Source: a virus
Reading direction: 5' to 3' (one strand)
IMG/VR virus record: IMGVR_UViG_3300044730_002015
Coordinates: 105,525-169,524 of that record
Length of the DNA stretch: 64,000 bases
Notes under the pieces: model-generated
What the model saw: the letters and a program-made list of their open reading frames with translations, nothing else
Told to the model about the DNA's origin: nothing
The model's database searches: none
Position numbers and translations under genes: made by a program
In this document: piece after piece, positions 14,045 to 64,000 of the stretch
Layout of the letters: every line of letters starts with the position of its first letter
Numbering within the stretch: the stretch's first letter is position 1

Positions 14045-16003
14045 TCAGTGTGCGGAATTTACAACTTCAATCTGGGTACCATCTTCTTTGATTGTGTGAC
14101 AAGTCCTGATAAATTTTACATCAACGGTGGTCCAATCAATTGGTTTGGCCAAAGTGTGAAATCTGCGTATTTGAAATTCGGGCAGTACTGAGTGCTGGCG
14201 TGATTCTTCCCAAGCGTCCCAAGCATATTTTACCGAAAACTTTACTGCCTGCGTTTCTCTAAATGTAGACATTTCTAAATAATCAACTAGATCCGCAAAT
14301 GCATCAATGGGCATAAAATCTGCGAACATTTGCCTGATCTTTTGGAAAATTTCAGATCTGTGTCTTGACCAAAGTTTCAACAACACATTGAATATAGGTT
14401 CTTCTACGCCATCCAATTCAACCTTGCGCCAATCTTTGTCTGCATACTGGCCCGAAGCCATAAGATCGAGATATCGATCAAACGGTTGATAGAATCCTGG
14501 CACAGCAACAGCTACTTCATATAATCTCCTGAGAGTTTGCCCAGCAGAGAAGTTTTGGTGCAACCGAAGATATTCAATCATTGGAGTCAATAAATGTTGA
14601 TTACTGATGATCATATCAAAATCGGTCATAAACATCATCTGTTTCCAATCATCGACTGTATAGCTCGAACTGCTGACCGGAATAAAAACCACTTGATCTG
14701 ACACTGTGGTGTTGTCGTAAATCGCGATGTAATCTTGATCCAATAGCTGTACCTGCTCGCCGCCTTCACCTTCCATGCCCAAAGGTACCAATTGCAGTTG
14801 ATGTTGCTTGATATAGTCGGGATTGGCTGCTGGTGTATCTGGCATGACGAAAAACGGTGCGCGAGTCACCCCACTGTATTTGTTAAACACACGATGCACT
14901 ATGTTGCATTCTTCATAAAAGTCGTCCAATGTGCTGCCGGGCAGGCCCAGTATCAATTCTACATTGACTCCAATGTCATAATCATCTATATAGGATCTGG
15001 CCATTGCTATGTTATCTTCCAAACTGATATCAGTGCGATCTATGTTTTTAAGAGCAATTGGGCTGACTGTCTGTATGCTCATTTGATAGTTTCTAACCAG
15101 TCCGGATTCTATCAGCGGTGTTAACACAGCACGTCTTTTGTCAATCTGTACTTTAGCCAGGCCTCCTATGTACACATCATTCAGTTGATCTTTCAAGGCA
15201 GCAAACATTTCAGCGATCTTGGCGTCTCTAGGAAGTATACCAAAATTGGCATCTGTGATGTACACACTTTTGACTCCTATCACAGGAAAGTAACTGAGAT
15301 CGTCAGCAATATTTTCCATGCTGTTTGGTACTACCTTGGTATTGATACCACCGCCCCATTCGCAATAAACACAACCATATGGACATCCTCTGTTGGTTTC
15401 ATACAGCACTGTTACCGGTCTTCCGCTTTGTTGGCTGTATTCAGCGTATTTCATTGATTCATCTAAGTTGGTAGAATACACACCACTGGGGAAAACAAAA
15501 TCTCTTTTGTTGGGTTGTGGACCGCGGCCGCCCGGATGATAACTATTCCGGACATTAGACCAATCAAGATTGTTGTCAATGATAGAATCTAAGGTATCGG
15601 TTAAAAACCATTCCCCGTATTCGGTAGGTGTACAGGTGGCGTCAAACCAAGGATATTTTTTAAACCATAGCAGTGGAGATGTATGCGTGGTATTTTGATG
15701 TGGACCGCCCAAGACCAATAAAGCATTGGGCTGTAGTTTTTTCACTTTCTGAGAGACAATTTTGATTACATTCCAACTCCACATATAGCTGGAAAAGGCA
15801 TAGACATCGGCTTGATGCTGTACTGTGTCCTCTACTATATCCTCTATGCTCCAACCAGTGTAGTCTATCTTTGGAGCAATCCATTGCCATTGGTCAGGGT
15901 GCCGGCCATTGAGTTCATAGTATCTTTTGAAACTAAAATAACTGCCAGGTAAGAAAAGATCGTAGCGAGTGGTGTCAAATTTGAAAAAGTGAATCTTTTT
16001 CAT
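14045..16003 (-). CDS. Radical SAM enzyme with B12-binding-like N-terminal domain
   Basis: SSYMW, GGP, ETNRGCPYGCVYCEWG, DANFG, ILGLP. Confidence 0.88.
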   Translation of the reverse strand: MKKIHFFKFDTTRYDLFLPGSYFSFKRYYELNGRHPDQWQWIAPKIDYTGWSIEDIVEDTVQHQADVYAFSSYMWSWNVIKIVSQKVKKLQPNALLVLGGPHQNTTHTSPLLWFKKYPWFDATCTPTEYGEWFLTDTLDSIIDNNLDWSNVRNSYHPGGRGPQPNKRDFVFPSGVYSTNLDESMKYAEYSQQSGRPVTVLYETNRGCPYGCVYCEWGGGINTKVVPNSMENIADDLSYFPVIGVKSVYITDANFGILPRDAKIAEMFAALKDQLNDVYIGGLAKVQIDKRRAVLTPLIESGLVRNYQMSIQTVSPIALKNIDRTDISLEDNIAMARSYIDDYDIGVNVELILGLPGSTLDDFYEECNIVHRVFNKYSGVTRAPFFVMPDTPAANPDYIKQHQLQLVPLGMEGEGGEQVQLLDQDYIAIYDNTTVSDQVVFIPVSSSSYTVDDWKQMMFMTDFDMIISNQHLLTPMIEYLRLHQNFSAGQTLRRLYEVAVAVPGFYQPFDRYLDLMASGQYADKDWRKVELDGVEEPIFNVLLKLWSRHRSEIFQKIRQMFADFMPIDAFADLVDYLEMSTFRETQAVKFSVKYAWDAWEESRQHSVLPEFQIRRFHTLAKPIDWTTVDVKFIRTCHTIKEDGTQIEVVNSAH

Positions 16004-16041
16004 ATTTGTACTTAGCATGGGTCAGCGGGCGGTCAAAAGGA

Positions 16042-52898: not shown

Positions 52899-52989
<91 letters not shown>

Positions 52990-53002
52990 TGTGTATTAGT
53001 TA

Positions 53003-53848
53003 TTAAGTCCAAAGATACTGACGTAATTTAATGAGACGTATCATCATATCCTCATCTTCTTGCTCATATCTCTGTTCTAGTTCCTGCACTTGATCGATCA
53101 TGTCTGTGCGACGGCGCCGATCCTGGAGATCGTTGCTTTCCCATATTCCAAACACCGAATCGTCATTCTTGTTGTCATTCAGGCGGCTGTTGACGTAATC
53201 ACTCCAACCTGACACATCATGTGGGTCCAGCCGGTTAGGGCGCATTTGGGTCCACCAAAGATACAGATTGATACACTCCACAGCATTCTTGGCCTGTGCA
53301 GTAGGCTGACCATAGTCAGGGTGGCTGGGATTCACACCCGAGTCTTCATCATAGACCAAACCTGCGGCCCAGCGTAAAGCATCCAATCCGGCTTCGCGTG
53401 ATCTCCAGGTACGCCAACGCAACCACCCACGGGCATAAAAAGGTGCGTGATATTTTTCTCTTGCTTCCGGGTCCCAGGCAATGTTCCACCAAGCCTGCTC
53501 AACTTCCACAAAGTCAACCAGTTCGTTAAACAAGCAGGGAAGAAATCGATTGCCCACATCGCACCACGTACCCGGCCGGATGTCCTTTGGGTGTGCTGTG
53601 AGTTTATGTGTGCCCGTGACCCAGCGATTGTTCACATAATACTTGACAGCGTAAATCTTATCAGGCACAAACATCACAATATTTTGCAAGTGATCAAGGC
53701 CCTCTTCGGCCAGCCAATATCTAAATGAATGAGTTGTTTTGGCAGTGCGACGCCAATCGCGCCATTGCTCACTGGTGCCAGCCGACAACTTTGGTGTGCC
53801 GCGCAACCAATCAGCAAAACGTGAGCAACTCCAATAATTCGATCTCAT
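53003..53848 (-). CDS. Trp-rich phage hypothetical protein
   Basis: MRSNYWSCS...FNELVDFVEVE...IRLIKLRQYLWT; TTGACT-N17-CATAAT 6 nt upstream. Confidence 0.75.
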   Translation of the reverse strand: MRSNYWSCSRFADWLRGTPKLSAGTSEQWRDWRRTAKTTHSFRYWLAEEGLDHLQNIVMFVPDKIYAVKYYVNNRWVTGTHKLTAHPKDIRPGTWCDVGNRFLPCLFNELVDFVEVEQAWWNIAWDPEAREKYHAPFYARGWLRWRTWRSREAGLDALRWAAGLVYDEDSGVNPSHPDYGQPTAQAKNAVECINLYLWWTQMRPNRLDPHDVSGWSDYVNSRLNDNKNDDSVFGIWESNDLQDRRRRTDMIDQVQELEQRYEQEDEDMMIRLIKLRQYLWT

Positions 53849-53886
53849 TTGACTATTATGTATTACACGACTCAAGAAGTCAAGAA

Positions 53887-53914
53887 AAAAGGTGACGTTT
53901 TGGCATCACCTTTT
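53887..53914. terminator. Terminator downstream of ahpD
   Basis: AAAAGGTGA...TCACCTTTT. Confidence 0.7.
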
Positions 53915-53935
53915 GACCGCCTCTGCCCGACCAAA

Positions 53936-54451
53936 CTATTGTGCCAGCACTCGGCTCACTGCTGTGATCACGGCAGCTATGCGACCAATGTCACGCAATT
54001 GCTCCACCGTGTAGCCCGCTGACTTCAGTGTTTCATAATGTGCTTTGACACAGAAGTGACACTTGCCAACAATGCTGGCAGACAGTGCATATGCTTCAAA
54101 CCGCTCACGTGTGGTACCACCGTGCGTGGCTATGGCATTCATGCGCAACTGCGGTGGCAATCCCGACAGGTTGGCATCTTCTGCCATTTCTACGTAAGGA
54201 TACCATACATTGTTCATGGCCATGAGGCTTGCGGCTGTGACAGCGGCTTCTGCTTCTTTCTGATCAGCAATCTGGCTCTGCATCCAGGTCCATAACTTGG
54301 TATTACCTGAAGCAAAGGCTGCTGCCAGGGCCACTGCTTCGGCTTCCTCCTGCGGCAGCGTTGAACGCTTGACCACCGCGTCTATGTTGAGACGTGTGTC
54401 TTTGGCATAGTCAGGAATGGTTTCTTTCAGTTTATCAACCCAGGCAGTCAT
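53936..54451 (-). CDS. ahpD: Alkyl hydroperoxide reductase AhpD
   Basis: IPDYAKD.RLN, MAMNNVWY, LRMN, KCHFCVKAH. Confidence 0.93.
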   Translation of the reverse strand: MTAWVDKLKETIPDYAKDTRLNIDAVVKRSTLPQEEAEAVALAAAFASGNTKLWTWMQSQIADQKEAEAAVTAASLMAMNNVWYPYVEMAEDANLSGLPPQLRMNAIATHGGTTRERFEAYALSASIVGKCHFCVKAHYETLKSAGYTVEQLRDIGRIAAVITAVSRVLAQ

Positions 54452-54984
54452 TACAGTGTTTCTCCACCTACTGCACGATTGCAAGCACACTTTTCACCGG
54501 TCTGCAGTGCATCAAGTATGCGCAGGGTTTCTTCGCTGGAGCGACCAACGTTGAGATTGTTCACTGTGACATGCTGGATCACATTGTCTGGATCAATGAT
54601 GAATGTTGCGCGAAGTGCAGCGCCTGCAGGTGCGTAGAACACGCCCAGTTGATCAATCAAGCTCAGTTCGCCGCGCTGTGTGTCAGCAAACTGGATATGT
54701 CGGATTTTCTTAAGATCTTCGTGTGCTGCCTGCCAAGCCAGTTTGCAAAACTCATTGTCTGTTGAGCCTGTGAGCAGGACTGCGTCACGGTCAGCAAAAT
54801 CTGAGAACAACCGGTCGTAAGCCACGATCTCTGTGGGGCAGACAAATGTAAAGTCTTTGGGGTAGTAAACAACGACTTTCCATTTGCCAGCAAATGATTC
54901 TTCTGTAATGGTAAAGAAATCGTCTTTACCGGGATTGACACCTGTTACTGCAAATTTGGTTACTTGATCTCCTACTGTTTTCAT
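54451..54984 (-). CDS. ahpC: Peroxiredoxin AhpC
   Basis: YPKDFTFVCPTE, RATFIIDP, LQTGEKCAC. Confidence 0.95.
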   Translation of the reverse strand: MKTVGDQVTKFAVTGVNPGKDDFFTITEESFAGKWKVVVYYPKDFTFVCPTEIVAYDRLFSDFADRDAVLLTGSTDNEFCKLAWQAAHEDLKKIRHIQFADTQRGELSLIDQLGVFYAPAGAALRATFIIDPDNVIQHVTVNNLNVGRSSEETLRILDALQTGEKCACNRAVGGETL

Positions 54985-55036
54985 CTTGGTTTCCTTTTCT
55001 ATTCAAGTGGATGGCAGCCCTATGCTGCATTACAAC

Positions 55037-55065
55037 ATTGTAATAGTAATTATCTAGGAAATCAA
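55037..55065 (-). promoter_or_regulatory. Sigma70 promoter of ahpCD
   Basis: TTGATT-N17-TACAAT. Confidence 0.65.
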
Positions 55066-55073
55066 GTGAAATT

Positions 55074-55122
55074 ATAGATTTTTCCAATAATTATTTTAAT
55101 GATGATTATAAGAAAAATCTAT
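55074..55122. promoter_or_regulatory. OxyR/LysR-like operator
   Basis: ATAG-N7-CAAT ... ATAA-N7-CTAT; 11-bp inverted repeat ATAGATTTTTC/GAAAAATCTAT just upstream of the -35. Confidence 0.6.
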
Positions 55123-56126
55123 TGGACTTCTGGGGTATTTTGATGCTGCCAGGCCTGTATCGGCATGATGCAGTGTGTGGTTCTACAGTAATCCATGATG
55201 TGTGGCACACAAAACAAACTACAACGATCACGATACTGACAAGATCGGCATTCGGGTAACTGCTCTATCCTTGTCAAACTGTGTTGCATGATATCCACCA
55301 CTTCTTGATACAAATTATCCTGAGTCCATGCATTATTTTTAAACAGTTTTAAACTGTCGTGTATCACAGGTATGCGCTCGTGATAAAACGGCAAGAAATA
55401 CAATCCACCGTTTCTATACAACAGATCTACACCGCGACCTTCATGATCTAGGGCGTTGGGCAAATTGATAGGCAAGTGGCTGCGCTCATTGAAAAACTTT
55501 TGTGTGGTGCGTATGGTTCTCAGCAGAGTCAACGGATCATCCCTGCCGGCATTGAGTGCCAAGTCCATGCCAGGCAGCCAATCATAAACCTCACGCACAC
55601 GTTCAAAGATATCAGAATCAAATTCTTTTGGTTCCGCCGGCATATTGCCTAGGAGATAAACCCTGCTGAGATCTAGCCCACGCTGTTGTAACAAGGTCTT
55701 GAATGTGTCAATATTACGTTTGAGTTTGGCGCTGTAGGCTTGGTGATCATAACTGCCTAACTCCAGGGGCACAGCAATCTTGATCCTAGGATGTGGATAG
55801 TGTTCTGCTATTTCATCTGCTATATCTATCATCTGTTGCTGATTGTATCGCAAAGTAGTGCTGAATGTTATGCCAGCAAAACGTGTGGCCATGCGTTTGA
55901 GAGCAGGATCCAAACGCAGTTCTCGCTGGCTGCTGTGCCAGATATCTGTAGGGCCTAACCAAAAATTGCCTAACCAGAAATCTCGGGTATCCTCAATGAG
56001 ATTTTCTAATTGTTCAATGCCTTGCCCGTGTAGTTGATCTTGTCTGGGTATGACACAATCATTGCAGTTTAGTGCGCAACCAGCGGCAACGTCTACCAAG
56101 AGATCTATTTCGAATCGATTGAACAT
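55119..56126 (-). CDS. Radical SAM protein with Cys-rich SPASM-like C-terminus
   Basis: GCALNCNDC; C-terminal CRSCQYRDRCSLFC...C...C. Confidence 0.75.
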   Translation of the reverse strand: MFNRFEIDLLVDVAAGCALNCNDCVIPRQDQLHGQGIEQLENLIEDTRDFWLGNFWLGPTDIWHSSQRELRLDPALKRMATRFAGITFSTTLRYNQQQMIDIADEIAEHYPHPRIKIAVPLELGSYDHQAYSAKLKRNIDTFKTLLQQRGLDLSRVYLLGNMPAEPKEFDSDIFERVREVYDWLPGMDLALNAGRDDPLTLLRTIRTTQKFFNERSHLPINLPNALDHEGRGVDLLYRNGGLYFLPFYHERIPVIHDSLKLFKNNAWTQDNLYQEVVDIMQHSLTRIEQLPECRSCQYRDRCSLFCVPHIMDYCRTTHCIMPIQAWQHQNTPEVQ

Positions 56127-56151
56127 GGTAATATTTACCCTAGAAGGTGTT

Positions 56152-56227
56152 TGGTGCCGGTTGTCGGATTCGAACTGACGACCTACTGATTACAAATCAG
56201 TTGCTCTACCAACTGAGCTAAACCGGC
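56152..56227 (-). tRNA. tRNA-Thr(TGT)
   Basis: Cloverleaf; ACTGA-TTTGTAA-TCAGT; CCA. Confidence 0.95.
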
Positions 56228-57123
56228 TTGAAACTGTCAATGTCTGGCAAAGGTATTCTCGTGTGGGTTTTGGCCAGAATTGCTCCAATGCTGCTGCCCG
56301 AGTCTCCTGCACAATACATAGTGTATGTATTTTTATAGTGTGTCTTGAATAATTTTCTAGCAGGCGTATTATAGGCACATCCGCCCATGAACACACAACA
56401 ATCGGTTTGGACCGAGTGTTTTGCCCAGGTGATACAATTTTGCAATTCTTCCAAAAACACAGATTGCACACCGGCTGCTATATCCTGTTTGGGCAGTGTG
56501 TATGGCCAATACCTGATACCTCGATGTAAATTGTATTTTAAATAGGGTTTCACAAGATCGTGAGTATGATAAGCACTGCCCAATTGGGCCAATGCAGTGA
56601 TCTGAGATTCGTCTTTGGTTGGCCTATAACCCAGTAGTTTTGTGAATGCTGAATAAAACAGTCCCAGGCTATAGGGATATCGTCGGCTGTATAATTTTTT
56701 AAGATCATTGCCTTTGGCGTGCCAAATACTCACAGTATCTAGTTCGCCAATGGCATCTGCTACAAATATCACAGCCTGATCAAACTCACTGGCATAGTAG
56801 CCAGCAGCCGCGTGGCTGCCATGATGGTCGCCGTACACTATGTCAACATCTGTGATGCCAAATTGTGCAAGATAAATTTTGGGCAGTTCGGCCAGATCTA
56901 AAGCATCGGCAAATTGTCCTGCACGTAATTGACGGTATTTTTTACGCCAGGGATTTTCATACCAAAAGATTTTATCGGGCCGGCCCAGTTCCAAAGCCCA
57001 GTCTATCATATCCTGGGTTAACTCTGTATCAATTGGAGACAGTAGATGTTTTACTAGAACATTATTTTGGAACACGGCAACACTGCTGTCGTGACTCAGC
57101 GCATTGATGCCCCAAAGTATCAT
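56218..57123 (-). CDS. Carbamoyltransferase (NodU/CmcH), N-terminal Kae1-like domain only
   Basis: ILWGIN..HDSS, HHGSHAA, DAIGE, SLGLFYS, GGCAYN, GDSG; no C-terminal YrdC-like domain. Confidence 0.85.
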   Translation of the reverse strand: MILWGINALSHDSSVAVFQNNVLVKHLLSPIDTELTQDMIDWALELGRPDKIFWYENPWRKKYRQLRAGQFADALDLAELPKIYLAQFGITDVDIVYGDHHGSHAAAGYYASEFDQAVIFVADAIGELDTVSIWHAKGNDLKKLYSRRYPYSLGLFYSAFTKLLGYRPTKDESQITALAQLGSAYHTHDLVKPYLKYNLHRGIRYWPYTLPKQDIAAGVQSVFLEELQNCITWAKHSVQTDCCVFMGGCAYNTPARKLFKTHYKNTYTMYCAGDSGSSIGAILAKTHTRIPLPDIDSFKPV

Positions 57124-57221
57124 CTGTAGATGTAAGGATCTTGTTTTTGGCTGCGCTTTTGTTTGCGTCGATATCTCAATTCATTGAGCCATAGAACTAT
57201 AAATTCACGCAATTTTTTCAT
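57120..57221 (-). CDS. 33-aa basic peptide ending DPYIYR
   Basis: MKKLREFIVLWLNELRYRRKQKRSQKQDPYIYR; AAGGAG SD; ATGA overlap with the carbamoyltransferase. Confidence 0.65.
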   Translation of the reverse strand: MKKLREFIVLWLNELRYRRKQKRSQKQDPYIYR

Positions 57222-57945
57222 CAAAGAACTCCTTGACTAATACCAATGCATCTTGATGTGCTAGATCGGATGGATGCTCTTCTACATGAGGATAACCCTT
57301 GGCCCACTCTACAAAACCATGAAGAGGTGGAAAAAAGAACCAAGGATCCATGTCTATCTGAGATAGTAGGCATTGTATGTTTTCATCCGGTAAAGATTTA
57401 CGGAAAAAGTTGTGTGCCACACTAAAGATATAGGGAATATCATTTGCTTTTAGAAAGTTTTGTAGTAAAACAATTTCCCTGAGCGTGACGTAGTATTCAT
57501 AGATGTCGTCATGGCCCACGTGCCTATAAAAGTCATCAATAAATTTTAAAACTGATTGCTTGGATTTTTGTAGGTGTGACCCGGGACGAGTGTAATCTAA
57601 TTTATTGAAATTATGCCACTGTGAATACAATGCTGCGCCGTCGGCAGATACCGGAGTAGACCATGGATTATATGCAAAACGAAACTCAAAGCGATTGAGA
57701 AAAGTCCAATTTACCACTACTAAAATGTCTTGTGTGAGGGCCTGCTGACAACTCAACATAACTGTTCTAGCAATGGCACTGTTGCTGTAGCCTGGCACGG
57801 CCCGACACACATAGTCCCTAGACAGTTGACCGGCCAACAGTGCAGGCCAAGTCTTTAGACTGTGTTGCCATCGAGCCTGGTCATGATCTGACAATCCCGA
57901 ACCATAAACAAAGCTATCGCCCCCGGCAATGAGCAATTTGGACAA
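57205..57945 (-). CDS. SGNH/GDSL hydrolase-like protein
   Basis: GDSFVYG, PGYSN, HPS..AH. Confidence 0.75.
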   Translation of the reverse strand: MSKLLIAGGDSFVYGSGLSDHDQARWQHSLKTWPALLAGQLSRDYVCRAVPGYSNSAIARTVMLSCQQALTQDILVVVNWTFLNRFEFRFAYNPWSTPVSADGAALYSQWHNFNKLDYTRPGSHLQKSKQSVLKFIDDFYRHVGHDDIYEYYVTLREIVLLQNFLKANDIPYIFSVAHNFFRKSLPDENIQCLLSQIDMDPWFFFPPLHGFVEWAKGYPHVEEHPSDLAHQDALVLVKEFFDEKIA

Positions 57946-57957
57946 AGGTATGTTCCC

Positions 57958-58140
57958 TTATTCAGTAGCAGTCTGGCCAGGTGCATCCTTGCGTGTTTTG
58001 CTTTTGAAAACTTCTGCACCATACAACTCACCTTCAATCACGGTGAGTTTGCGAGCACGTTTGTGTGGACGATTCCAGTTGAATGCTAGATAGGTTTTGG
58101 CTGCTCGGGTCATGCGATAGTTTGATGTGGGTTTTTTCAT
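57958..58140 (-). CDS. Small basic hypothetical protein
   Basis: GAGG SD; MKKPTSNYRM... Confidence 0.6.
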   Translation of the reverse strand: MKKPTSNYRMTRAAKTYLAFNWNRPHKRARKLTVIEGELYGAEVFKSKTRKDAPGQTATE

Positions 58141-58157
58141 TGTTTCCTCTTGGTGTT

Positions 58158-58233
58158 TGGCTGGCTTACGTGGGCTCGAACCACGGACCTAGTGATTAAC
58201 AGTCACTTGCTCTACCTACTGAGCTATAAGCCA
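58158..58233 (-). tRNA. tRNA-Asn(GTT)
   Basis: Cloverleaf; AGTGA-CTGTTAA-TCACT; CCA. Confidence 0.95.
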
Positions 58234-58266
58234 ATGTTGTTTATTATACTATAACTTATCTTGTTG

Positions 58267-58731
58267 TCAAGCCTTGCTGTAATTAAAACACAGGGTAAAA
58301 CTGATGCGAGGTTCTGTGCCCAGGTATTCTGTGACTCTATGTATGGTTTTGGTATCGCTGATAAAAAGAGTGTTAGGCTCAAAGGGCATTTCATACAGCA
58401 TACCTTGTTCGTCTAGCCATTGATAGATGCCGCCGCAGCCCGTGCTGCCACTGATCCAGACAGTGGCCACGTGTGTGCCCGGTACTGCGTCTTGATCATA
58501 GCCACTTTCGTTGTGCCATCTATAGTATGTACACTCCCCGGGATCATTGGGCACAACGTAATTGAACCAATTTTCTGTGCTGACTATGGTCGACTCCAGA
58601 ATAGAACTTATCCAAAGGTCTAGATCATTTTTTTTGGTATCAAACATATTTTTTACACTGCTTGAATTACCTTGGTTTGATATCAGATCTTTCAACCAGA
58701 GAGGTATGTCAATGTTTTTGTAAACTTCCAT
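58267..58731 (-). CDS. 2OG-Fe(II) oxygenase-like protein
   Basis: WHNE...IHRV...RISF. Confidence 0.65.
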   Translation of the reverse strand: MEVYKNIDIPLWLKDLISNQGNSSSVKNMFDTKKNDLDLWISSILESTIVSTENWFNYVVPNDPGECTYYRWHNESGYDQDAVPGTHVATVWISGSTGCGGIYQWLDEQGMLYEMPFEPNTLFISDTKTIHRVTEYLGTEPRISFTLCFNYSKA

Positions 58732-58737
58732 GGGATT

Positions 58738-59544
58738 CTATTTGCAATTGGTACCACTTACCATTGTGAACTCCGCTATGGCCGCAGGCAATGCCTGATC
58801 AATGTGCGGTATAGGGAAAATTTTACAGAGTTTATCAGTGTTGAGTGTACAATTTGATCTCGGCGCTTTAACTGCTGTGACGAATTCGCCAGGTTCAAAC
58901 CATTGCTTGTTCAGTCCCAACATATCAGCGATTTCTCTGGTGGTTTTTGATCCAGGATTGGTCACGTTGTATATGCCAGGCTTGGGCAAGTGTTGAGCAA
59001 AATGCACAGCCACTCGGGCCACATCTGTGACATTGCTCAAGGAGTTTTTTACATCAAGCAACTTGGGATATTGGCTGAGTTTGGTCAAGAGATTTTTAGC
59101 ATTGGGTTCACCGGCAAAGGGCAAGCGAATCCTCAGCAGATAAGATTTTGTCAGATATGGAGCCAGGAAGTATTGAGCCAGTGCCTTGGTACCACTGTAA
59201 AAAGATCCATTGTCAAAATTGAAATTGGGTGTGTCTTGCTCGGTCCAGCCCCTTGGGGGATAGCCATCATATACACAACCACTGGTCACGTGTACCACAG
59301 GCACAGAGCCAGCACGTTGTTCCAATTCCAGTGGAAAAATTACATTGCCTTGGATAGTGTGTTGTTTGAGTGTTTCACACACATCCACATTGGGCCGTCC
59401 TGTAAATCCTGCGGCGTTGATTATGGTGGTGGTAACGTCCGGCAGTCTATCTGTGTGCGTGATCCAAAGATATTTTAGATTTTGATTTTCTAACTCTCTC
59501 TGGATGTATCCGCCCAAATAACCGTGTCCTATCAAGGTAATCAT
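58738..59544 (-). CDS. NDP-4-keto-6-deoxyglucose 3,5-epimerase/4-reductase (RmlD/NRS-ER-like)
   Basis: GHGYLG, AAGFTGRPNVDVCE, SGCVY, SFYSGTK, LRIRLP. Confidence 0.85.
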   Translation of the reverse strand: MITLIGHGYLGGYIQRELENQNLKYLWITHTDRLPDVTTTIINAAGFTGRPNVDVCETLKQHTIQGNVIFPLELEQRAGSVPVVHVTSGCVYDGYPPRGWTEQDTPNFNFDNGSFYSGTKALAQYFLAPYLTKSYLLRIRLPFAGEPNAKNLLTKLSQYPKLLDVKNSLSNVTDVARVAVHFAQHLPKPGIYNVTNPGSKTTREIADMLGLNKQWFEPGEFVTAVKAPRSNCTLNTDKLCKIFPIPHIDQALPAAIAEFTMVSGTNCK

Positions 59545-59572
59545 TGTGACTCCAAATTTGTACAGTATTTTA

Positions 59573-59833
59573 CTATTTTACTGAGTTGTTGTCAAGCCCA
59601 GTCCAGGCCAAAACGAAAATCATGCGATCTTGATCATATTTAAAAGCCACCCCAACCTTGTCTGGATCTAGGCTATCGGTCCAGGCCCAGGTCTGCAGCC
59701 AAGGACCCACGTACATTCTGAGCCAATCATTGTACTGATCAACGGCCTGTTGCCATTGATCGGGTCGGGCATAACTGGGCCAAGGTATGGCCGTTTTATA
59801 CACAAAAGGATGCAGATCAATCAACATCTTCAT
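59573..59833 (-). CDS. Hypothetical protein, F-x-L-x-W paralog family
   Basis: WLRMYVG...W.W...VAFK...MIFVLAW. Confidence 0.7.
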   Translation of the reverse strand: MKMLIDLHPFVYKTAIPWPSYARPDQWQQAVDQYNDWLRMYVGPWLQTWAWTDSLDPDKVGVAFKYDQDRMIFVLAWTGLDNNSVK

Positions 59834-59851
59834 GTGAGTATTTACTAAAGT

Positions 59852-59927
59852 TGGAGCGGGAGACGAGGCTCGAACTCGCGACCTCAACCTTGGCAAGGTT
59901 GCGCTCTACCAACTGAGCTACTCCCGC
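59852..59927 (-). tRNA. tRNA-Gly(GCC)
   Basis: Cloverleaf; CAACC-TTGCCAA-GGTTG; CCA. Confidence 0.96.
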
Positions 59928-59932
59928 AAATA

Positions 59933-60406
59933 CTAAGCTGCCAGGCTCAATCCACGCAATCTATCTGCAGCATAACTGGCTGCAAACGCCTGTGGTTTGA
60001 CCATGGGTATTACATTACAGGTACCACGGATGTATCCAATGGCCTGCTGAACAACACAACTGCTGGCGTGCATCTCATTGGGATTGATATCCAGATGCAC
60101 TTCCACTGGACGATCTGCCAGCACAGGCGCCAGTCTTTGAAACAGTTCCGACACCCTATAAACTTCATTCATAAGACGCATACTTGGTTTATCCCCGCGT
60201 GGATCATAATCTCGCTCGCGATCCACTTCACCAAAAATCTTGCATCCGTGTTTGCCGTTGATATGAACCACTACCACAGTGGTATATTCAGCCCACCATA
60301 CCTGGCTTTCACGGAATCTTTCGGAATCTGCGCCTAGATAGATTTTTGTTCCCGGACCCTGAGCAGCAATAAACTTTTCCACTTGATCAACGTCTATCTT
60401 GGGCAC
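59933..60406 (-). CDS. RNase H-like YkuK (DUF458) family protein
   Basis: IYLGADS, RLMNEV, EVHLDIN, KP.AFAASYAAD. Confidence 0.85.
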   Translation of the reverse strand: MPKIDVDQVEKFIAAQGPGTKIYLGADSERFRESQVWWAEYTTVVVVHINGKHGCKIFGEVDRERDYDPRGDKPSMRLMNEVYRVSELFQRLAPVLADRPVEVHLDINPNEMHASSCVVQQAIGYIRGTCNVIPMVKPQAFAASYAADRLRGLSLAA

Positions 60407-60508
60407 AAAGCCTCCTTTGAGTTATTTAACTAGCGCACATACCAGGGCTAGGTATTCTGATCAGCGCAAAAATGCAATAAGTAATGGTATGACATTGGCT
60501 GCCGACAA

Positions 60509-61078
60509 GTGGATCTTTATCAAGAATTAGAACTCAATCGGGATTGTACTGCCGAGCAGATTAAAAATCAATACAGAATCTTAGCTCAGCGACATCATCC
60601 CGACAAGGGCGGAGATGCCGATCGATTTCAGCGCATCAAGCAGGCCTACGAAGTTTTGATAGATGCTGCCCGCAGAGAAGAATACGACAGAACTGGCTCT
60701 GTACAAGAACCCAAAGAGATACACGCCGAAGCAGTAGAACACCTGTCTAGGGTGTTCCATGGAGTGATGAATAATTTTGACCCCGAATCGGGAAATCTGG
60801 TAGAGCTCATGCGCAACGAAATACTGGCGTTGAGAAAACTAATAGAACAAGATCAGAATACCTGTAAAAAACACATAGAAATACTAGAGATGATGAAAGA
60901 CAAAATAAAAATCATCGACGAAACAAAAGAAAATCTGTTACTATCTTTTGCTACCAATCAATTAGAATTACGATACAATGAATTAAAAGTGTTTGATCAC
61001 AGATGCAACTTAGTTGAAGTCATGTTGAAATTGTTGGAAAACTATCACTACGGTTTCTTTGAGTTACCCCAGACTTAA
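60509..61078 (+). CDS. J-domain (DnaJ) protein
   Basis: HHPDKGGD...AYEVL...R.EYD. Confidence 0.88.
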   Translation: MDLYQELELNRDCTAEQIKNQYRILAQRHHPDKGGDADRFQRIKQAYEVLIDAARREEYDRTGSVQEPKEIHAEAVEHLSRVFHGVMNNFDPESGNLVELMRNEILALRKLIEQDQNTCKKHIEILEMMKDKIKIIDETKENLLLSFATNQLELRYNELKVFDHRCNLVEVMLKLLENYHYGFFELPQT

Positions 61079-61081
61079 ATT

Positions 61082-61159
61082 TGGAGCACCGGGTAGGATT
61101 CGAACCTACGAATCGAAGGTTTTGCAGACCCCGCCATTGGACCTCTCTGGTACCGATGC
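61082..61159 (-). tRNA. tRNA-Cys(GCA)
   Basis: GCATCGG/CCGGTGC acceptor stem, CT-GCA-AA loop, GGTTCGAATC, U73, CCA. Confidence 0.92.
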
Positions 61160-61285
61160 AGATTCTAATTCATAACGCAGTTGACAAAGTCCACAGCACC
61201 AATCATCCTGCATGAGTCTCTCACGCAACTGCTCATCAGTGGCATAGTCTTCTTCGTCGATGTTTCTACATACACAGGCTATCAT
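61106..61285 (-). CDS. Bfd-like [2Fe-2S] ferredoxin
   Basis: MIACVCRNI...CCGLC; TAAGTA-N5-ATG start. Confidence 0.6.
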   Translation of the reverse strand: MIACVCRNIDEEDYATDEQLRERLMQDDWCCGLCQLRYELESASVPERSNGGVCKTFDS

Positions 61286-61312
61286 ACTGGTACTTATCGT
61301 GGTACATCTTAA

Positions 61313-61386
61313 TGGCTCCGGTGGAGAGAATCGAACTCCCATCATGGGTTTTGGAGACCCCTATACTGCCATTGTACTACACCGGA
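61313..61386 (-). tRNA. tRNA-Trp(CCA)
   Basis: TCCGGTG/CACCGGA acceptor stem, CT-CCA-AA loop, CCA. Confidence 0.92.
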
Positions 61387-61556: not shown

Positions 61557-63275
61557 TTAGTTCGCCAATTGAATGCTTGATGTTGATTTGTTATTTACAA
61601 AATGCCTAGTCCATAATACTTGGTATGCGTCTGTCAAAGGTATAACCTTTCCGTCTAGACAAAATCTGCGCCAGTCTCTATGCATGAATTCTCCGCGGGC
61701 AACACCTATAAAATGATCCATAAGTGGTTGGAAAAAATCTGTTTCTGTTTTCAACTTGGCATACAGATCGCGGAAAAATTCGCTGTACTTTATACCCTGC
61801 GACCGGGCCTGTTTAATCTCAGATAACATTATGCCCTTGGTTCTAAACATGGTATCTAAATCTGCTAAAAACATCATTTCCAGCCATTGATCCCTATCAA
61901 AGCTATTGCAACTGACAATAAAATATGCCGCAGCAACAGACACCAGTTTAGGATCGTAGTTGATATAGTAGTCGCGATCGTAGTCGGCCATGTCCATTTT
62001 TTCTTCGCTTTGTATGCCCACCGCAACCAATTCTATTCCGTGCTGTTGGATATATGCAGGATCGCTGGCAGGACTGTCGGGCAGGCACATCATGGGACTG
62101 CGATCTACGCCTATAGCGTCAGCAAGATCTGTAAATGGTCTATAGAAAAACATTTCATAGATTATATCAAATTCTTGATAAAAGTCTTCAAGTGTGCTGT
62201 CGGGCAGGCCTAGTATGAACCCAAGATTGATGCCTGCGTGGTAGTCCCTGATCAACTGTTGTGCTAACTCCATATGATCCTTGGCCGATACATCCGTGCG
62301 TTTTATGGCCCGTAGACTTTCTGGACTTATGGTCTGCAGACTCATGTCATAACCATCAATGACACCAGCGTCAAACAACGGAGCAAGAACCTGTAACTTT
62401 TTTGCATTTGTAGTCTTGGCCAAACCGCTCATGAGCAACGAAAATTTATGTGTACAATTTTTATAGATGTCAGCCACGATATTGGCTTTGACTATATCTT
62501 CTTTTAACAGTCCAAAATTTGCATCTGCTAGATAAAGGTAGTCGGGCTCAATCACAGGAATATAACCCAATTCCTCCATGACTAGATCTAAAGGCTTGGT
62601 GACAACTTTGGAATTGATTCCTCCGCTCCACTCACAGAAAGTACAACTGTAAGGACAGCCACGAGTGGTTTCGTATATCCATTGGAAGCCCAGATTGTTA
62701 TCTTTGGCAAATTGCCTATAGGTCAGTATTTCAGCTAGGTTATCAATCACTGTGTTTTTAGGCCAAGAAAAATCTCTTTTGTTCTGCGTGGGCCCTAGTC
62801 CTTTTCTTGAATAACTGTTTCTAACTTTTGACCAATCTAAACTATCCTGTGATATAGATTCCAATGCATCTTTCAAAAACCATTCGCCATATTCATTGGG
62901 CAAACAAGTGGCATCAAACCAAGGAAACTTTCGAAACCAAAGCAGTGGCGAAGTATAACTTACTCCTTGGTTAGGACCGCCCAAGACTATTATCGAGTCG
63001 GGTCGTCTTTGTTTGATTGCCTTGGCCACAGCATTCACTGCAGACCAGTTCCATATATAAGCACTGAATGCATAGACATCCGCATCATTATCTATGGCCT
63101 GGTCAACGATGCTGTCTAATGTCAGCCCCACATAACTGGGTCTAGGCAAAAGCCAATGCCATTGCGATGCGTATTCACTGTTCTCTACAAAGTATTGTTT
63201 GAAATTTAAAACCGCAGTGGGAAATTGTATGAGATAAGGATAGCAACCAAAATCAAAAAATTGTATTTTTTTCAT
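61557..63275 (-). CDS. Radical SAM enzyme with B12-binding-like domain (paralog of 14045-16003)
   Basis: SAYIWN, GGP, ETTRGCPYSCTFCEW, DANFG, ILGLP. Confidence 0.88.
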   Translation of the reverse strand: MKKIQFFDFGCYPYLIQFPTAVLNFKQYFVENSEYASQWHWLLPRPSYVGLTLDSIVDQAIDNDADVYAFSAYIWNWSAVNAVAKAIKQRRPDSIIVLGGPNQGVSYTSPLLWFRKFPWFDATCLPNEYGEWFLKDALESISQDSLDWSKVRNSYSRKGLGPTQNKRDFSWPKNTVIDNLAEILTYRQFAKDNNLGFQWIYETTRGCPYSCTFCEWSGGINSKVVTKPLDLVMEELGYIPVIEPDYLYLADANFGLLKEDIVKANIVADIYKNCTHKFSLLMSGLAKTTNAKKLQVLAPLFDAGVIDGYDMSLQTISPESLRAIKRTDVSAKDHMELAQQLIRDYHAGINLGFILGLPDSTLEDFYQEFDIIYEMFFYRPFTDLADAIGVDRSPMMCLPDSPASDPAYIQQHGIELVAVGIQSEEKMDMADYDRDYYINYDPKLVSVAAAYFIVSCNSFDRDQWLEMMFLADLDTMFRTKGIMLSEIKQARSQGIKYSEFFRDLYAKLKTETDFFQPLMDHFIGVARGEFMHRDWRRFCLDGKVIPLTDAYQVLWTRHFVNNKSTSSIQLAN

Positions 63276-63282
63276 AAAAAAA

Positions 63283-63520
63283 ATGCTCTGACAGTGCCCG
63301 GCGGTCTTTTACTACTCACACAAGAGTTCTGGTTACCCACATCTCCAAAGATAGCCATCGCCCTTTGGTGGTTCAGCAGAACAAGATTCTTGCAGAGCAC
63401 CCGCTCCGCGACAGCACTCGGTATCGCCTTGCCAGCGCCAGTTGGGTTAGACTGGGACCACCCGCGGTTGCTACACCGCTTCATTCGTCCGGGTCGGACT
63501 AGCCGTTGCTACGCGGCACG
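63283..63520 (-). ncRNA. Structured non-coding RNA candidate (~240 nt), family unassigned
   Basis: GC-rich intergenic region with multiple hairpins and long-range helices (GGUGGUC/GACCGCC, UGCUCUG/CAGAGCA); ends in a U run. Confidence 0.65.
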
Positions 63521-63525
63521 ATAGA

Positions 63526-63999
63526 TTAATCAGCGGAGCGAGTTAGGCCACGCCAATGTGTTAATGCTTTGGTGTCAGTGGTACTCACCGACTTCCACTT
63601 CTTTCCAGTCCACTCAGCACGACCAGGAAAAGGCCAAGTACCGGTCAACACCTGATATTCACCTCGATGCTCAGGTTTGATGTCCATTGAGTGCCAAGGC
63701 GTTGTTTCAATGCCTTCCCAGAATTCTGGTTCACCGTCATTCACATCAGGCGCGGAGATTTTGTCAAGTTCAGTGGCAGGATCCCAATCATCCGCTTCCT
63801 CATCGCGTTCCACACGGAACACATTGTAATTGGATCCTTTGCCGTTGGTGCTGTAGGCACCGGATCCATCCAGGTCCTCACCTGCATACTCCACGCTGGA
63901 TATCAATCTCCAGCCGTCGCAGTCAGTGTAACCAATGCTGAGTCGGCTGACATCAAAAGGTTCCGTGATCCTGACTGTGGCACTGAAGAATAATCCCTT
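63526..63999 (-). CDS. Phage hypothetical protein (partial, start beyond the right edge)
   Basis: Frame open to the window end: KGLFF...FD...DG...VEYAGE...STNGKG. Confidence 0.7.
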   Translation of the reverse strand, partial: KGLFFSATVRITEPFDVSRLSIGYTDCDGWRLISSVEYAGEDLDGSGAYSTNGKGSNYNVFRVERDEEADDWDPATELDKISAPDVNDGEPEFWEGIETTPWHSMDIKPEHRGEYQVLTGTWPFPGRAEWTGKKWKSVSTTDTKALTHWRGLTRSAD

Positions 64000-64000
64000 T

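Follow-up and report, generated by a model that had tools for sequence, protein, structure and literature searches.

A structured RNA family that matches no catalogued one and is usually wedged between phage tRNA genes

The stretch of viral DNA analysed here (64,000 nucleotides, referred to as the window) carries at 63284-63522, on the minus strand, the single-copy gene for a stand-alone non-coding RNA of an uncatalogued family; RNAs of this family are inferred to be made together with the phage tRNAs and most likely act in trans, in some role near tRNA or translation. The family to which it belongs is a large and strongly conserved one of structured RNAs of about 200 nt, present on hundreds of phage contigs. 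It matches no catalogued family, and its members are usually wedged between phage tRNA genes.

The window forms the final 64 kb of an IMG/VR virus record of 169.5 kb (CheckV completeness 48%), in the whole of which the covariance model described below, R1, finds one copy of the RNA. The gene and its immediate surroundings are as follows.

63526 to 63999, minus strand: neighbour on the upstream side, outside the RNA; an ORF from the ORF list with unknown function and no Pfam hit.
63284 to 63522, minus strand: the whole RNA gene, 239 nt, from its full-length match to R1.
63276 to 63283, minus strand: U8 tract leading from the RNA to the radical SAM ATG, read from the sequence.
61557 to 63275, minus strand: neighbour on the downstream side, outside the RNA; a B12-binding radical SAM gene (Pfam PF04055 and PF02310).

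The stop codon of the upstream ORF lies 3 nt ahead of the RNA, and the gap between that ORF (63526) and the radical SAM start (63275) amounts to 250 nt on the minus strand. A first-pass annotation of the window, made from the letters alone, had singled out this spacer as GC-rich beside an AT-rich gene, as indeed it is (GC of 0.51-0.57 against 0.39-0.44 in the radical SAM gene downstream), and had noticed the U8 tract, which does run straight into the ATG at 63275. A U run is found 3' of the RNA in many members without a downstream tRNA; the one in the window was not called as a terminator, and a promoter and terminator scan of 62900-64000 found neither. The radical SAM ATG directly follows the U8 tract (63273-63283) and leaves no space for a Shine-Dalgarno sequence or a promoter. 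Translation of this gene probably takes place on a transcript in which the RNA is still present, or else uses an unusual mode of initiation.

ARAGORN and Rfam place six tRNAs elsewhere in the window and none at the RNA. These tRNA genes (Ser, Thr, Asn, Gly, Cys and Trp), located at 52899-61386 and all on the minus strand, are split by protein genes, whereas most phages with the RNA have theirs in tight arrays. The tRNA nearest to the window copy lies 1.9 kb downstream on the same strand; this copy is neither flanked by tRNAs, nor inside a tRNA array, nor flush with tRNA ends, and appears to sit in a broken-up tRNA region. The radical SAM gene is itself one of two paralogous B12-binding genes in this phage (14045-16018 and 61557-63275, both with PF04055 and PF02310), and the contig of a 45% identical homologue has two radical SAM genes in tandem right after a 2OG-Fe(II) oxygenase gene; the paralogous pair and the tandem pair behind the oxygenase suggest a multi-enzyme modification pathway.

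A search for related loci yielded no relative by way of the radical SAM protein and, by way of the upstream ORF, only a contig ending before the RNA. The radical SAM protein has homologues, close ones included (97%, 84%, 73% and 45% identity among them); the contigs of two, the 97% and 73% relatives (L003 and L004), extend into the upstream region, and both keep the RNA element as identical blocks alternating with variable ones. IMG/VR was scanned with two short patterns drawn from the conserved blocks, the first of which, 15 nt long, matched mostly by chance. With the window's own 250 nt as query, nhmmer found 21 homologous stretches among the fetched loci; a 40-nt core pattern occurs in at least 119 IMG/VR contigs and at least 120 metagenome contigs, and a pattern from the 3' part brought 33 more full-length members that are not exact fits to the core pattern. 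Matches by nhmmer and the covariance model were obtained in more than 130 fetched phage loci. R1 (186 positions, 35 pairs) was built from 26 members and scores 135.2 bits against the window (E 1e-50), from position 1 to 186 of its 186, at 63284-63522 on the minus strand. The window sequence is among these 26 seed members; nhmmer with the window alone had found the family beforehand.

Each of five phage genomes that are 92-100% complete (320-347 kb) holds one copy of the RNA. Among the IMG/VR matches listed, the contigs that carry it are between 1 kb and 347 kb long, and among the metagenome matches listed they reach 583 kb and 785 kb. The two largest, L304 (785,472 bp) and L358 (583,758 bp), have full-length copies in tRNA arrays (176 and 180 bits); to our knowledge these lengths are at or beyond those of the largest phage genomes known, and whether the contigs are phage, host or misassembly is undetermined. 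The contig of the most divergent member, L295, has a second, weak match to R1 (1560-1686, 20.4 bits, GC 0.32), which lies upstream of the genuine copy at a distance of about 500 nt and may be a decayed duplicate. By blastn, three versions of the family found no copy in 50,697 GenBank phage records. A core-pattern scan of the genomes of 185,579 prokaryote species matched 14 contigs, which are taken as chance because none fits the covariance model, leaving no confirmed copy there. Against E. coli genomes, blastn gave only a chance-level 26-nt match in mutY (E = 8) and no similar RNA. The family appears to be confined to uncultivated, mostly freshwater-type large phages.

The first-pass annotation had proposed the RNA as a candidate for an undescribed element, and it remains uncatalogued: Rfam 15 returned only tRNAs over the whole window at the gathering threshold, nothing relevant over 63150-63650 even at E up to 10, and no match at the element in five other members at E up to 1, the only overlap in other members being a sub-threshold sX4 match in L158, most of which falls on the neighbouring tRNA. 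It had likewise set aside tRNA, tmRNA, RNase P and known riboswitches, rightly so as far as models can tell. ARAGORN and Rfam find no cloverleaf or tRNA-like domain at the RNA, RNase P models do not match at E up to 10 and the topology, by eye, lacks a long-range pseudoknot enclosing the bulk of the molecule like P4, which in RNase P is formed by the conserved regions CR-I and CR-V, and cobalamin and SAM riboswitch models do not match, the neighbours being tRNAs or unrelated genes. The loose likeness to the manA motif, also a structured RNA seen in aquatic phages, did not hold up, as neither manA (at the gathering threshold or at E up to 10) nor any other Rfam model matches. Likenesses seen by eye to 5S rRNA, the T-box, the ZTP riboswitch, the cobalamin B12 box, the hammerhead core and RNase P P4 were rejected, since they come down to short GC-rich words that are unconserved or to a wrong topology, without model match. 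As far as the literature was available to us, no paper describing the RNA or its 13-nt core word was found; a 2023 survey of structured RNAs in IMG/VR has 8,495 unnamed candidates (PMC10690425) that could include the family.

Folded as a single sequence, the window RNA has a minimum free energy of -86.8 kcal/mol, which is not better than chance (z = -0.26 against 200 shuffles), and the opposite strand is not significant either. The window sequence alone being unremarkable, the evidence for more than chance is comparative; folding-energy statistics on their own would have dismissed a real structured RNA. In a plain MAFFT alignment of 96 distinct members, 92.2% of the cells of 39 pairs are paired, against 74% in column shuffles and 37-50% with slid partners, and the covariation score is 0.516, against 0.19 in shuffles and less than 0.09 in slid controls, with 30 compensatory pairs. 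In the R1-fitted alignment of 100 members 98.4% of the cells are paired (76% in shuffles, 36-51% with slid partners), and a 49-pair structure that includes tertiary pairs, with extra members added, gives 97.4% against 79% in shuffles. Covariation among homologs, which the first-pass annotation had named as a check of its proposal, is therefore strong, with compensatory changes in 30 of the 35 nested pairs of the R1-fitted alignment. The parts of the RNA, from 5' to 3', are these.

63502 to 63517, minus strand: hairpin H1, with a 4-bp stem in the window and an 8-nt loop; 5 of 5 model pairs compensatory, 99.6% of cells paired.
63487 to 63499, minus strand: hairpin H2, with a nearly invariant 5-nt loop, GACCC; 3 of 4 pairs compensatory, the stem varying and the loop conserved.
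63464 to 63479, minus strand: hairpin H3, its loop the same as that of H1 in the window clade; 5 of 5 pairs compensatory.
63457 to 63463, minus strand: single strand GGGUGGU between H3 and H4, invariant in elements found by independent patterns.
63438 to 63455, minus strand: hairpin H4, with conserved loop U-N3-A-C-C; 4 of 5 pairs compensatory, the loop T-loop-like by eye only.
63425 to 63437, minus strand: small hairpin H5, 3-4 bp with loop GGCAA; third pair changing from C-G to U-A in 14 members.
63413 to 63418, minus strand: 5' strand of P5, with partner 63293-63298; 6 of 6 pairs compensatory, 97.5-98.2% of cells paired.
63401 to 63411, minus strand: 5' strands of P5b (63409-63410) and P6 (63401-63404) with a purine bulge between them, from covariation.
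63305 to 63400, minus strand: variable arm P7, 96 nt here, of three stacked helices with a GAUG-capped tip.
63293 to 63304, minus strand: 3' strands of P6 (63301-63304), P5b (63299-63300) and P5 (63293-63298), from the same pairs as the 5' strands.
63284 to 63292, minus strand: conserved unpaired 3' tail ending in AGCA, with AGC invariant and the next A in more than 90%.

As this covariation shows, the fold is conserved and knotted, with five hairpins and a contact between the loops of H1 and H3 in most members; a closing stack of P5, P5b and P6 returns the 3' end to the middle of the molecule, with the variable arm set on a conserved internal loop. About 50 nucleotides of the RNA are nearly invariant. 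No conserved pairing partner was found for the 3' tail at 63284-63292.

All the segments and complementary stretches on which the first-pass annotation had built its own fold are present in the sequence where it placed them, and seven of its helices are supported by the family whilst two are not. The two hairpins that it described as sharing a loop (63517-63502 and 63479-63464) have compensatory changes at all their model pairs, those at 63499-63487 and 63455-63438 are supported by covariation, and so is its long-range helix 63418-63413/63298-63293, compensatory at all 6 pairs. The supposedly enclosing helix 63462-63456/63306-63300 gives way to P6, since its 3' half pairs with 63404-63401 instead: wherever 63403 changes from C to U, the position opposite changes from G to A (12-14 sequences), which makes the C-G to U-A switch of P6, and the P5b pair covaries too. 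The other helix without support, 63399-63393/63290-63284, can be formed by no member other than the window and its 97% relative L003. As for the long interrupted arm, the window clade (window, L003, L004, L013 and L061) clearly bears out two of its helices, which covary together with the GAUG-capped tip hairpin, whilst the innermost stem is borne out only in part, with partial covariation over 2-6 bp in the same five sequences. Elsewhere the length of this arm runs from 0 to about 100 nt, and its pairs show covariation across the family; in the majority of the other members it is shorter and has what by eye looks like a K-turn. The arm of the window clade (63305-63400) also has conserved internal-loop words, AGUA-like opposite GA-rich, that look like a loop E or sarcin-ricin motif. 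Besides the arm, the RNA varies at a second site, the junction of the G-rich strand and H4, where an extra insertion of 30-75 nt, apparently a hairpin, is found in five members (L124:7084-7370, L284:7404-7664, L270:859-1109, L272:4457-4720 and L273:4178-4427).

The suggestion that the RNA is pseudoknotted stands as regards a knotted fold, whereas the crossing helices proposed for it are not the conserved ones. The tertiary pairs with support are those between the H1 and H3 loops and, more weakly, those of 63463-63457 with the loops of H2 and H4. The H1 and H3 loops are complementary in most members, with 3 covarying pairs; in the window clade they are identical and not mutually complementary. 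The invariant G-rich strand likely pairs with the H2 and H4 loops, as judged from the alignment: in the proposed PK1 its positions 63460-63463 would pair with the H2 loop (63491-63494), and in a second proposed pairing the strand (63457-63463) would meet the H4 loop (63445-63447). These pairs are formed in 99.5% of the cells, and because the pieces hardly vary their support is thin, with compensatory change only in the divergent L295 and a consistent wobble in three members. An apparent helix between the 5' leader and the 3' end proved to be an artefact, the 3' strand pairing internally as P5. The 5' leader co-varies with the linker between H2 and H3, and no base-pairing rule accounts for this covariation.

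Across the family, tRNAs lie within 3 kb of the RNA at 106 of 114 loci, and all 1308 of these tRNAs are on the strand of the RNA, none being opposite. An upstream tRNA ends flush with it at 70 of the 114 loci, with its CCA about 3 nt before the conserved core, and at 40 a tRNA starts no more than 10 nt past the tail, 27 of which have the flush upstream tRNA as well; the identities of the flanking tRNAs vary between loci. Such flush packing is the norm between array tRNAs (42% of the gaps between neighbouring tRNAs are of 0-10 nt), so it says little about mechanism. The same arrays have, besides the gaps of about 200 nt that hold the RNA, more than 240 gaps of 31-190 nt, which may hold other small structured RNAs. 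At the loci without tRNAs, the RNA starts just past the stop codon of some ORF, the downstream genes differ by locus and no partner protein gene is consistently adjacent. With 8 of 114 loci lacking a tRNA within 3 kb, the position in an array is typical and not obligatory. A radical SAM gene follows the RNA only in the closest relatives of the window, L003 and L004. This RNA behaves as one more gene of the tRNA array, and its location in such arrays, together with a radical SAM neighbour that is peculiar to this lineage, makes it a stand-alone gene and not a riboswitch or leader of the radical SAM gene. The first-pass annotation had leaned the same way, and the hundreds of phage contigs on which the RNA is mostly flanked by tRNAs and its neighbours vary agree with it.

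RNAs made from phage tRNA arrays may have a precedent, by analogy, in T4 rnaC and rnaD and in ROOL and GOLLD. T4 rnaC (species 1, 139 nt) and rnaD (species 2, 119 nt) are small, annotated stable RNAs which, like the present one, lie on the tRNA strand a few nucleotides from a tRNA in a phage tRNA cluster, and whose function is, as here, unknown; the two are also only a few nucleotides apart. They are not homologous to it: R1, run without filters, reaches at most about 2 bits there, and 4.4 bits at best over T4 69500-74000. The present RNA is also larger than these two and much better conserved from phage to phage, and its fold is knotted and multi-domain. ROOL and GOLLD, both Rfam families, are RNAs of phages described as ‘often near tRNA islands’ and have cryo-EM structures (PMC12286853); they share with it a complex, covariation-supported structure, carriage by phages or prophages, proximity to tRNA islands and an unknown function. 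Their covariance models do not match six members tested at E up to 1-10, and their sizes (about 580 and over 800 nt) compare with about 200-240 nt here; unlike them, the present RNA has no confirmed copy in bacterial genomes or GenBank phages.

If position and strand, on which alone this inference rests, are a guide, the RNA would be made within the phage tRNA transcript and could then be freed by the enzymes with which the host trims tRNAs, RNase P on the 3' side and, on the 5' side, the processing of tRNA 3' ends. Once freed, it may persist as a compact stable RNA; its expression, ends and stability are all inferred, no transcript data being at hand. Release by RNase P cannot apply as such to the window copy, which has no flanking tRNA. 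In the phage of the window, protein genes would have split the tRNA region so as to leave the RNA between a stop codon and the radical SAM start, where it is presumably co-transcribed with the neighbouring protein genes without regulating them. We infer that the RNA most likely acts in trans, in a manner tied to tRNA or translation during infection; that it would do so through binding to a protein, to a tRNA or to other copies of the same RNA is a guess, and nothing found here indicates a specific partner or activity. We rank a trans-acting stable RNA linked to tRNA or translation first, followed by a decoy or mimic, then by a self-cleaving ribozyme and, a long way behind, by a cis-regulator in this lineage.

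A decoy would be a special case of the trans-acting stable RNA, in which a mimic of some tRNA-like or ribosomal surface soaks up a host factor (e.g., a defence nuclease that cuts tRNAs, or a protein of tRNA processing or translation). Phage tRNA arrays are thought to offset host attacks on tRNAs, and the RNA shares its locus with them; H1-H3, with the contact between the H1 and H3 loops, loosely recall tRNA arms and an elbow, and there are the T-loop-like loop of H4 and the K-turn-like motif in most arms. All these resemblances are by eye only, however, and neither tRNA, tmRNA, Y-RNA-like and rRNA models nor blastn against the RNAs of E. coli give any match or similarity, nor is any partner protein gene consistently adjacent, so we regard the decoy as possible and still unlikely. 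A comparably tentative thought is that the RNA represents a new class, large and either catalytic or tRNA-binding, added to phage tRNA arrays, for which there are no activity data. It could be, for example, a ribozyme that matures or repairs co-transcribed tRNAs, or a binder of tRNA ends or elbows that shields phage tRNAs from host nucleases, and its active core would then be the invariant G-rich strand and the ACC-bearing loops.

That the RNA is a self-cleaving ribozyme maturing phage tRNAs, by cutting at its own 5' edge (freeing the CCA upstream) or at its 3' edge, seems to us doubtful. The core starting 3 nt past a tRNA CCA at 70 of 114 loci would suit such a role, as would some 50 nearly invariant nucleotides in a knotted fold, which are typical of ribozymes, and the HDV-like theta ribozymes of gut phages, which directly abut tRNA 3' ends in tRNA clusters (Kienbeck et al. 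2024, PMC10879173), provide a precedent that is likewise phage-borne and placed against tRNA 3' ends. Theta ribozymes are minimal HDV folds, however, whereas the present RNA is about three times larger and of another topology: its covariation-fixed helices do not, by eye, map onto the strand order (P1, P1.1, P2, P3, P4) of the nested double pseudoknot of HDV with its catalytic C, and no HDV, hatchet, twister, pistol, hammerhead or glmS model matches at E up to 1-10. In addition, the same flush spacing is usual between plain array tRNAs, about 40% of the members (that of the window included) have no tRNA directly upstream, and 200 nt far exceeds the size needed for cutting a tRNA end.

A cis-acting leader or riboswitch (e.g., for cobalamin or SAM) of the downstream radical SAM gene is suggested by the window itself, where the RNA stands directly upstream of the gene with its U8 tract running into the ATG, an arrangement kept in the 97% and 73% relatives. 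This reading is largely refuted and very improbable by now, given that no riboswitch model matches, that the 45% identical homologue abuts and slightly overlaps its upstream gene with no space for the element, and that the great majority of members lie between tRNAs or before unrelated genes. The paralogue at 14045-16018 (which the first-pass annotation had said lacks the element) has none either, R1 finding a single copy in the window. Nevertheless, a local role for the radical SAM gene in this lineage cannot be excluded, as the window copy abuts the start codon without room for a promoter or Shine-Dalgarno sequence. Finally, a small protein gene or a meaningless GC-rich spacer, for which it can be said that a 70-aa ORF (63272-63484) and a 99-aa antisense ORF can be drawn and that the folding energy is not better than that of shuffles, is refuted by the compensatory changes in the helices and hardly deserves credence: the ORFs are not conserved, with just 7 of 100 members having a forward ORF of at least 50 aa, the lengths of the element are spread over all three mod 3 classes with indels that are not multiples of three, neither ORF of the gap has a Pfam hit, and a mere spacer is ruled out by conservation across hundreds of otherwise diverged contigs.

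The preferred reading thus remains that of a stand-alone, trans-acting RNA. Few bacterial or phage RNAs of this size join about 50 near-invariant nucleotides, a loop-loop contact, likely pseudoknots, a wide distribution and an unknown function. Such classes of RNA have later proved to be ribozymes, riboswitches or RNA machines. At 200 nt and with a defined covariation model, the RNA is small enough for probing, crystallography, cryo-EM, and cleavage and binding tests, which makes the role of RNAs in tRNA arrays directly testable. Together with T4 rnaC and rnaD, ROOL and GOLLD, it is evidence that the RNA cargo of phage tRNA clusters is not limited to tRNAs.
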